Shown one piece after another: positions 61,906 through 62,993 of a stretch of DNA of 64,000 bases. Below the pieces are notes generated by a model. It made no database searches and had not been told where the DNA came from. It saw nothing but the letters and a program-made list of their open reading frames with translations. The translations under genes and the position numbers were made by a program. Origin of the DNA: an uncultured virus (IMG/VR IMGVR_UViG_3300028920_001041) (lineage: Duplodnaviria; Heunggongvirae; Uroviricota; Caudoviricetes); the IMG/VR virus record IMGVR_UViG_3300028920_001041, one strand, 5' to 3'. Every line of letters begins with the position of its first letter. The stretch's first letter is position 1.

Positions 61906-62619
61906 ATGGCAGAGTTAAAGTTAAACCAAGCCCTCACTCATCGAAGTCGTCTGTTAGGACGAACCTCTGGTGAATATAAAGGTGAGGTAGCACAGACTGT
62001 TTTTCAATGAAGATTAACAATGAATGATGATTCTTTGGGATCAGTCCGGAAGAAAATGTTCGCGTTAACACCTGTTCATTTTACTATTGGTAAAAAAGCA
62101 CCAAGGGGATTTGAGTCCAAACAAGACTTCGAAACCCGTACAAAAGCGGAGAATACATCTATTGCTCAACTGATGAAAAATTCAGAAGAGTTATATGAAA
62201 AGATTCTTCAAGCTAACGCCGATAAGAAAGTGACAATTAACGGGAAAAAAATGTCTGTAGCATTCGCAATCGTCTACAGAGATATTTTCTTGCCCAGAAA
62301 GAAGGATCAGTTAACAATATTGAAGTTTCAATATCAAAAAGTATTAACTGAGATCGATAACATTAACGAACAAGCAAAACGAGAAGTTGATCAAATTATT
62401 CAGACTTCTTCACAAGCCGAAAAACCTAACGCTGAAGAATCAAAGAAAGCGTATGAGTTTCACATAGGCAATCGTGAGGCAAAGTTAATCGATCCGTTAG
62501 GCATTAAAGATGATATTGATAAATTGCAAGCCGAAATTGAGATCATTGAAAGCGATCTTCAAACTCAATTATACACCAATAATATATCTACGGATATAGA
62601 TTGGTCTCCTGAAAGTTGA
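61906..62619 (+). CDS. DIP1984/septicolysin-like coiled-coil protein interrupted by in-frame TGA (62008-62010)
   Basis: AAAAGGAGG RBS at 61888; in frame with ORF 62020; motifs L.QAL...L, ANA..KVTING..MSVA.AI, LIDPL, N.ST.I recalled for this family. Confidence 0.6.
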
Positions 62620-62993
62620 CAGATATTGAGGTGCGTTTTACGACTCGTAAAAACACGGCCCTTTAGGGAGTGAGGGTTATCACTCCCTATCCCGCCCCTA
62701 CGAGGGGCACAGGTAGATGGAACCTGCAAATAGACAAGAAGCATATATAAATGCTTCACCAACTCGTAATCTTTAATATTGTAATCTTAAGCACGGTCAT
62801 TAGCTATGAAGCGGGGGCTTTACCTCGTGGAGCGTTCAGACCAATAAGATCGTAAGATCTAATTTTTGACACAATTCTAAGATTTGATTTTATAATATTG
62901 CAAGTTTCAGACACAAGTCGGAATGAAGGTAAAATAGGTTTTCCAGTGGACCTTGCGGCGCCTCCGGTTAAGATGTATCTCAATTATCGTCAA
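62616..62993 (+). ncRNA. structured RNA G (~380 nt) with periodic YAAK repeats
   Basis: closing GAGGUGC/GCGCCUC (62628/62958) plus outer AGAUAU/GUAUCU and UUGAC/GUCAA; five internal hairpins; ~7-nt periodic UAAU/UAAG/CAAG tracts. Confidence 0.75.

Follow-up and report, generated by a model that had tools for sequence, protein, structure and literature searches.

A structured phage RNA and the adjoining gene for a helical protein: a widespread, apparently undescribed gene-RNA module

What is the non-coding block that begins at the stop codon of gene 61906-62619 in the uncultured-virus DNA IMGVR_UViG_3300028920_001041 (Caudoviricetes), and does it belong with the gene that it follows? The whole stretch analysed here, 64,000 nt in length, is called the window throughout. 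A preliminary description of this locus, made from the sequence alone, had proposed that a coiled-coil protein and a dedicated RNA with a 7-nt periodic tract form a ribonucleoprotein system, in which the protein oligomerises on the RNA or the RNA neutralises the protein. Here, we show that 1) the block corresponds to a non-coding RNA that is structured and strand-specific and belongs to an undescribed family, 2) the RNA is linked to a gene for a helical protein of ~210-240 aa at every locus examined, in either gene order, and 3) gene and RNA probably constitute an unrecognised protein-RNA module in hundreds of large phages, including T5 relatives. What had been observed is confirmed, how it had been interpreted is partly supported, and the finding generalises well past the window to a module that is widespread among phages and apparently undescribed.

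Starting at the stop codon, the block has a G+C content of 0.49-0.50 against ~0.3-0.38 around it, as had been noted, and it folds with a minimum free energy (MFE) of -117 kcal/mol (z = -4.5; equalled by 0/100 shuffles). Since the minus strand gives an equally good fold (z = -4.5), energy alone cannot assign the strand. The RNA is retained directly behind the stop codon in three metagenomic relatives (73-86% protein identity), and RNAalifold predicts 93 pairs from the window and these relatives, 10 of them with compensatory changes, which affect, among other places, the closing helix P1, four pairs of the hairpin at 62664-62689 and the 62795-62842 domain. The 372 pair cells include 55 G-U and 2 A-C combinations; therefore, the plus strand is the folded one. 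Hardly any change is seen in the unpaired tracts 62764-62792 and 62842-62917, which are more conserved than the stems and the protein, and the lengths of indels among the relatives are not multiples of 3. Two minus-strand open reading frames (ORFs; 62565-62762 and 62804-62983) were rejected as mechanical only, since indels in the relatives disrupt their frames. The RNA matches none of the 4227 models of Rfam 15 (window searched at E <= 1), and a DNA search with 61500-63400 in a phage collection returned no match.

The long-range closure claimed for this RNA is real, with covariation across four sequences, although its register differs from the one first drawn (P1 in Table 1). The stems GAGGUGC/GCGCCUC and AGAUAU/GUAUCU, which had been offered as part of that closure, pair perfectly in the window without being kept in the relatives, where GCGCCUC is invariant while its partner changes. 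A third stem, UUGAC/GUCAA, is in the MFE fold of the window but is unchanged in only one relative (L017). The count of five hairpins stands: at least those at 62664-62689, 62694-62708, 62710-62726, 62738-62757 and 62795-62842 are present, plus a hairpin in the 3' core. Compensatory changes within the G+C-rich 5' domain fall in its first hairpin (4 pairs) and its second. A pattern for an H-type pseudoknot with an A-rich third loop, to which the window contributes a candidate, occurs in the first 170 nt of 21/65 family RNAs versus 20/650 shuffles.

We found the same pairing of gene and RNA in other phages. The RNA adjoins the gene in 26/26 distinct loci inspected by hand, which include the window group and seven further IMG/VR loci, and lies downstream in 25 and upstream in 1. 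In the latter (L009), the RNA stands immediately upstream of the gene, and therefore the linkage survives a swapped order. Consistently, an unannotated gap of 342-1233 nt lies right behind the gene in 15/15 annotated phage records. The shared layout runs, 5' to 3', from the closing helix P1 near the stop codon through a G+C-rich 5' domain of hairpins (often with the H-type pseudoknot), a middle part that varies and in some phages includes a permuted tRNA-like (YrlA-like) domain, and a single-stranded, A-rich tract of tandem words to a 3' core, in which AAAUCC, a 5-bp helix (H) and GCUG are followed by the 3' strand of P1.

Helix H was examined by covariation. Among 15 seed sequences of diverse clades, 100% of 73 cells are paired (slid controls, 24-68%), with 17 double changes versus 5.0 ± 1.9 in shuffles (0/500). 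Among 44 held-out sequences, whose alignment is fitted to the covariance model R1 of the 95-nt 3' core, 99.1% of 220 cells are paired (slid controls, 10-53%), with 56 double changes versus 19.6 ± 2.8 (0/500 shuffles). Additionally, in an Otagovirus-type group the fold comprises 84 pairs, 8 of them compensatory.

According to the preliminary description, its proposal would fall if homologous genes lacked a conserved, structured or periodic RNA downstream; the proposal survived this check. A conserved, structured and periodic RNA accompanies the gene in all 26 hand-inspected loci and in 76/80 loci matched by R1 at E <= 1 (58 at E <= 0.01), the test set being the best 80 of 422 IMG/VR relatives picked by protein alone, with some near-duplicates and four repeats of loci inspected earlier. 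Every match is on the gene's strand, downstream and the only one at its locus, and in the four loci that R1 missed the same core and tract are visible by eye. In 5/5 whole phage genomes, all of them sources of seeds, R1 gives a single match per genome. The distance from the stop codon to the end of the core has a median of 398 nt (range 284-685).

Other candidates for relatives were rejected. Searching viral contigs with the exact pattern CCTTGCGGCGCCTCCGG gave 9 matches, all of them by chance (G+C-rich contigs with no related gene). The long non-coding RNAs (lncRNAs) of phage K beside tRNA-Met (PMC9241854) were ruled out, with phrog_2948 as neighbour and an RNA without a word tract. Their locus (L030, Staphylococcus phage K 13595-14229) yields abundant RNA and shows that Herelleviridae repeatedly have large RNAs close to tRNA genes. 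As a separate observation, a drum RNA (RF02958) is present in the Clostridium phage D-1873 record (L023) at 2910-3017 (47.7 bits versus a cut-off of 43), ~400 nt downstream of the phrog_1491-linked RNA and inside one unannotated 1.2-kb gap.

Is the window RNA itself a member of this family? Same-strand adjacency, P1 and the words are found in the window, and the core is recognisable by eye, being collinear with the T5-type and PVP-SE1-type cores (H, a 5-nt bulge, H2 and a shared GGCGCCUC). R1 gives no match to the window group, whose anchors read AAGUC and GUUA versus AAAUCC and GCUG. Because the neighbouring genes are homologous, position and architecture are identical and the core is collinear, these sequence comparisons suggest that the window RNA likely belongs to the phrog_1491-linked family.

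The word tracts were compared with 1000 dinucleotide-preserving shuffles. The window RNA has 16 Y-A-A-K words in total versus 8.9 ± 2.6 (reached by 5/1000 shuffles), a peak density in 75 nt, in tract B, of 9 versus 3.95 ± 1.15 (0/1000), a longest run with 5-8-nt spacing of 3 versus 0.6 (5/1000), and four copies of TAAGAT (35/1000). Among the 14 word positions listed previously, 12 are Y-A-A-K, whereas 62867 reads TGAC and 62885 reads TGAT. GUAAUCUU occurs twice in tract A, which is near-invariant in 4/4 relatives. The claim of a 7-nt periodic tract therefore divides: word number, density and 5-8-nt spacing exceed shuffles, but a Fourier test of the window for AA periodicity at 6-9 nt gives no significant signal (85/200 shuffles reach it). 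The plain NAAG count of the window is also not significant (46/200 shuffles); such counts are mostly non-significant versus dinucleotide shuffles, and periodicity and YAAK words are the better tests. In held-out RNAs, an AA period of 6.25-7.75 nt is reached by <=1/100 shuffles in 23/39 and by <=5/100 in 33/39. A strict 7-nt period is a property of the family rather than of the window copy. Word forms are UCAAAG, UUAAAG, UGAAAG and similar in most members, which follow YNAAAG at a 7-nt period, while UAAG prevails in the window group and phage G, giving YAAG in the window.

Tandem words of 7-8 bp are iteron-like, and TTGACA-like hexamers are visible by eye near the tract in several loci, so that the repeats might act as DNA, i.e., as replication-origin iterons, a partition site or an operator array. 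Against this, 76/76 R1 matches are on the gene's strand, the 55 G-U pairs would be A-C mismatches on the opposite strand, the long-range helices covary, and a promoter scan showed no excess of sites (5 versus 6.7 ± 3.1 in shuffles). We regard a role as DNA as very improbable, and the tract as part of an RNA.

The gene that accompanies the RNA belongs to a large protein family, with 718 cluster representatives at E <= 1e-3 among 1.84 billion. A tblastn search with the PVP-SE1 member returned 749 phage records, which span T5-type phages of Salmonella and Escherichia, Vequintavirinae, Bastille-type Bacillus phages, phage G, Vibrio, Lactococcus and Erwinia jumbo phages, and others; the window protein as a lone query found no IMG/VR locus. 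Although phrog_1491 carries the label 'tail fiber protein', the gene sits in early or tRNA regions and not in tail modules; the label is a widespread mis-annotation that nothing in our analysis backs. No NCBIfam family matches (scan at E <= 1) and no Pfam family does so consistently across 112 members, the Pfam YkyA match (E = 0.003) being below cut-off.

An AlphaFold2 model built with these 112 sequences (pLDDT 94.3, pTM 0.77) predicts long helices at residues 72-106, 118-169 and 200-228 and a small beta element (residues 3-5, 108-117 and 230-232) that holds most of the invariant residues. The top profile match among 177,635 PDB sequences is 3kdq_A (E = 0.0043), and the top Foldseek match is 3kdq_C (probability 0.97, E = 0.04, TM 0.32/0.44), which is short of usual thresholds, with no Foldseek match in the PDB at E <= 0.001. 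3KDQ, the sole solved relative, is an uncharacterised Corynebacterium diphtheriae protein, which we take to be DIP1984. Since 3KDQ comes first by profile and by Foldseek, a DIP1984-like relationship is plausible but remote. The label DIP1984/septicolysin-like given previously gains weak, if consistent, support, but no such NCBIfam or Pfam family matched.

A four-copy complex model supports, but does not establish, self-association of the protein (ipSAE 0.67 versus 0.00 for the best control; run agreement >=92% of contacts; partner pLDDT >=83). The calibration mark was reached by 20/30 proteins solved as one-chain pairs and by 1/23 solved as single chains, counts that are only approximate here given the custom alignment and four copies; the pass could also reflect memory of 3KDQ. 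Identical residues are in contact on both copies in the model, and therefore the predicted assembly is a symmetric dimer. The oligomerisation claimed for the protein thus holds as predicted self-association, but as a dimer rather than a ring. Two members of double the usual length (P0022, 409 aa; P0140, 436 aa) each match the query in two stretches and may be tandem-duplicated, covalent-dimer forms.

Type III systems (ToxIN, CptIN, TenpIN) carry antitoxin units of ~34-45 nt upstream of a gene for a ToxN/AbiQ-type endoribonuclease, with a terminator between the two. Here too, a protein gene adjoins a repeat-bearing RNA, and the words are A-rich like ToxN-type cleavage sites, so that the RNA might neutralise the protein, as the preliminary description had offered for its second reading. 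The systems differ in unit length, gene order and protein fold. The words measure 4-7 nt and are not tandem units of ~36 nt, and the RNA lies behind the gene in 25/26 loci, not ahead of it with a terminator between. Furthermore, the protein is predicted to be all-helical, with no nuclease match in Pfam, NCBIfam or PHROG, and the module occurs in strictly lytic phages, e.g., T5 relatives. A toxin-antitoxin-like pair is a poor fit, and we find it scarcely credible.

The gene of the window contains an in-frame TGA at 62008-62010. The codon is Gly in 7/7 close relatives (52-86% identity, 237-239 aa; P0002-P0008), the otherwise identical metagenome contig L015 has GGA, and contigs from 3/3 public runs (three studies) have G at 62008. 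TGA is an ordinary stop in the window, where it terminates 29/98 ORFs. Because relatives and other assemblies have a Gly codon and TGA is an ordinary stop here, comparison of the sequences indicates that the T at 62008 is an assembly error or rare variant and that the natural product is the 237-aa protein. Recoding of TGA as Gly or Trp was ruled out, given that 29/98 ORFs and the gene itself end in TGA and that other assemblies have GGA, as was translational bypass or an intron in a 27-codon insertion, which close relatives encode in frame.

Table 1. Positions of the gene, the RNA and their parts, in window coordinates unless a locus is named.
Feature	Position	Strand	Remarks
AT-rich promoter-like motif	61682-61719	+	present in 4/4 window-group loci; promoter role inferred
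Gene, phrog_1491 / DIP1984-like helical protein, 237 codons	61906-62619	+	phrog_1491 E = 4e-31
In-frame TGA	62008-62010	+	GGA (Gly) in relatives; confined to this assembly
Structured non-coding RNA, ~375 nt	62616-62995	+	ends approximate; 93 consensus pairs, 10 compensatory; z = -4.5
P1 closing helix, 5' strand	62625-62642	+	pairs with 62965-62984; compensatory at two pairs
5' domain, G+C-rich	62657-62726	+	hairpins 62664-62689, 62694-62708, 62710-62726
Candidate H-type pseudoknot	GGCCC 62657-62661 with loop GGGUU 62674-62678	+	pattern match
Word tract A	62764-62792	+	UAAU, UAAU, UAAU, UAAG at 62767, 62774, 62782, 62788
Word tract B	62842-62917	+	UAAG/UAAU/CAAU/CAAG words at 5-8-nt spacing; UAAGAU three times
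3' core	62917-62968	+	helix H GUCGG 62917-62921/CCGGU 62964-62968, 5-nt bulge, H2 AGGU 62927-62930/GCCU 62960-62963, inner hairpin
P1 closing helix, 3' strand	62965-62984	+	covariation; MFE fold extends the helix to 62616/62993
YrlA-like domain	L022 2253-2316; L025 1954-2057; L009 1586-1684		below threshold
YrlA-like domain	L012 ~2640-2720		by eye

The window derives from a large phage that encodes a class II ribonucleotide reductase (59076-61544), a dUTPase-like ORF (labelled from its sequence alone) and, according to a scan of the large ORFs, a DNA ligase and a DEAD-box helicase. Between the reductase and the gene lie ~360 nt of non-coding DNA that contain an AT-rich promoter-like motif. This motif, TTTTTAATATT..TTTTATAAAGAAAT-like, recurs at 63003-63037, so that a copy stands ahead of both transcription units, and it is kept in relatives. 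Its first copy is likely the start region of the gene and RNA transcript, and the motif may serve the phage-encoded multisubunit RNA polymerase as a promoter. Translation would begin at ATG 61906, which is preceded by a strong ribosome-binding site (AAAGGAGG), and ends at TGA 62617-62619. The sole terminator-like site on the plus strand (63315-63358) lies beyond a second conserved block, and none separates gene from RNA. Given a conserved promoter-like motif upstream and no terminator between them, co-transcription of gene and RNA is plausible.

Three observations on these surroundings stand apart. Split pieces of RNA polymerase, beta- and beta-prime-like, are encoded at 27031-29001, 30561-32522 and 52765-54078; such split fragments resemble those of phiKZ-type jumbo phages. 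A PAS-HisKA-receiver protein, unusual for a phage, is encoded at 48122-49393. Finally, within 63003-63358, a second conserved non-coding block (~63049-63235) has its own promoter-like motif (63003-63037) and terminator (63315-63358). It is near-unchanged in L016 and L017, and in L018 an inserted ORF splits it from the first RNA. With 61 predicted pairs, just 2 of them compensatory (3 sequences), and no Rfam match, it is a candidate second non-coding RNA of ~190-300 nt.

A block that begins at the stop codon with no intervening terminator could also be a cis-acting part of the mRNA, i.e., an autoregulatory or stabilising untranslated region (UTR) bound by its own protein in the manner of TRAP or HutP, oligomers that read short repeats 5-7 nt apart in single-stranded RNA, and periodic words are typical of such operators. 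The likeness consists of a ~7-nt word period in an unpaired tract and of a nearby gene for a protein predicted to self-associate. However, TRAP and HutP act on operon leaders and control termination, whereas the present tract belongs to a large RNA that folds independently, and the protein is helical and predicted to be a symmetric dimer. Moreover, a size of ~375 nt, a pseudoknot, an isolating closing helix and optional tRNA-like domains exceed the needs of any known operator, conservation is higher in the single-stranded tracts than in the coding sequence, and the element occurs on either side of the gene. Overall, we consider a cis-acting UTR improbable and favour an RNA that acts as part of a two-part module.

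A connection with tRNA recurs in the family. Genes for tRNA are present in the fetched flanks of 11 loci (L001, L002, L003, L009, L011, L020, L023, L024, L025, L026 and L028), and the Rfam model of YrlA (RF02553) matches inside the RNA of L022, L025 and L009 at 41.6-44.5 bits versus a cut-off of 69. By eye, the domain resembles a permuted tRNA, with T arm, capped acceptor stem and D arm; it lies in the middle of the RNA and is not annotated as tRNA. In the window, no YrlA match was found at E <= 1 (60500-64000), and no TROVE domain was found among 13 large ORFs.

As described in PMC4201824, canonical YrlA is encoded beside the Ro60/TROVE gene, within ~4 kb and on the same strand, and Y RNAs measure ~100-200 nt and have no tandem word tract. 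The family resembles the YrlA/Ro60-Rsr pair in that both RNAs are same-strand neighbours of the gene for a partner protein and are closed by a stem of 5' and 3' ends, and three relatives (L022, L025 and L009) share the permuted tRNA-like domain. It differs in that scores stay under 69 bits and cover just this internal, optional domain, that the window RNA has no match, and that the partner is a helical DIP1984-like protein (phrog_1491) instead of a TROVE ring.

Sponge RNAs, such as CsrB and RsmZ for CsrA or CrcZ for Hfq/Crc, also carry multiple copies of a short motif in one RNA of ~350-400 nt. The RNA might act in a comparable way without its neighbour, as a sponge or decoy for a host RNA-binding protein or an A-rich-specific ribonuclease, or as an ornate RNA of the ROOL/GOLLD kind, with the gene merely co-transcribed or co-regulated. 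This would suit a protein that is overall not basic, words that are short and A-rich as in the sites of CsrB and CrcZ, and a module that stands among other stable RNAs (tRNAs, and the drum RNA in L023). It would also suit the finding that other phages have large RNAs without an assigned function close to tRNA genes, such as the lncRNAs of phage K (PMC9241854). ROOL, GOLLD and drum (10.1101/2024.12.08.627333) are structured phage and prophage RNAs that are large or recurrent and commonly lie close to tRNA genes. The present RNA is likewise a large, ornate phage RNA of unknown function, often in tRNA arrays, but it has no Rfam match, is accompanied by a protein gene of its own and contains a tract of tandem words, whereas ROOL and GOLLD are both reported as RNA-only assemblies. 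Sponge RNAs differ in turn, their motifs being GGA in hairpin loops or AANAANAA, and they are chromosomal, with host global regulators encoded elsewhere as targets. Adjacency of gene and RNA is kept across phages of Firmicutes and Proteobacteria at 26-35% protein identity, and despite the swapped order in L009, which would be unexpected from mere co-transcription. An RNA that works independently of the protein is therefore a possible, if rather doubtful, alternative.

The explanation that we favour is a two-part module, in which protein dimers sit on the repeated words of a co-transcribed RNA and the resulting ribonucleoprotein acts in RNA/tRNA metabolism; we hold it with middling confidence. 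Gene and RNA would be transcribed together from the upstream promoter-like motif, and the RNA would then be freed, perhaps via cleavage within the long P1 duplex. Protein dimers would bind the repeated words, so that each RNA would carry several protein units in a ribonucleoprotein particle. We infer that the protein may bind the RNA with one subunit per repeat. The particle would most likely act on RNA/tRNA metabolism in host takeover or counter-defence, as scaffold or decoy, since many copies of the module lie within tRNA arrays of phages and some include a tRNA mimic.

Several points weigh against this explanation. The protein family is on the whole slightly acidic (median pI 5.8, net charge -2), which is unusual for an RNA binder; its charge is split, with a basic N-terminal and an acidic C-terminal half. 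The predicted interface is that of a symmetric dimer, not the head-to-tail contact required for a ring or filament. The biological role is a guess from the neighbourhood, and the window has a single tRNA-Glu and no tRNA within <=3 kb of the gene and RNA. To these are added the lack of an R1 match in the window group and the non-significant AA period of the window copy. A more specific proposal, i.e., a new ribonucleoprotein class with DIP1984-like units in 7-nt register on the word tract, whose particle would be a decoy or scaffold that protects or manages the tRNAs and transcripts of large, tRNA-rich phages (T5-like, rV5-like, Bastille-like and jumbo phages) against RNA-targeting defences of the host, is a tentative one that we would not expect to hold in full.

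Literature searches turned up neither an account of the RNA nor a function of the protein. PMC10690425 catalogues 10,006 anonymous candidate viral RNAs; five of our locus contig ids are absent from its searchable supplements, with three files left unsearched, and the catalogue may contain fragments of the RNA.

Taken together, a folded RNA of ~350-450 nt that accompanies a single protein gene seems to occur in no fewer than 749 sequenced phages. Among them are relatives of T5, one of the oldest model phages, and groups of phages used in therapy and biocontrol. As a large family, it joins the few ornate phage RNAs known, and the uncharacterised DIP1984-like fold gains a first functional lead in its association with a periodic RNA. 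Such a module might represent a novel type of viral machine made of RNA and protein.

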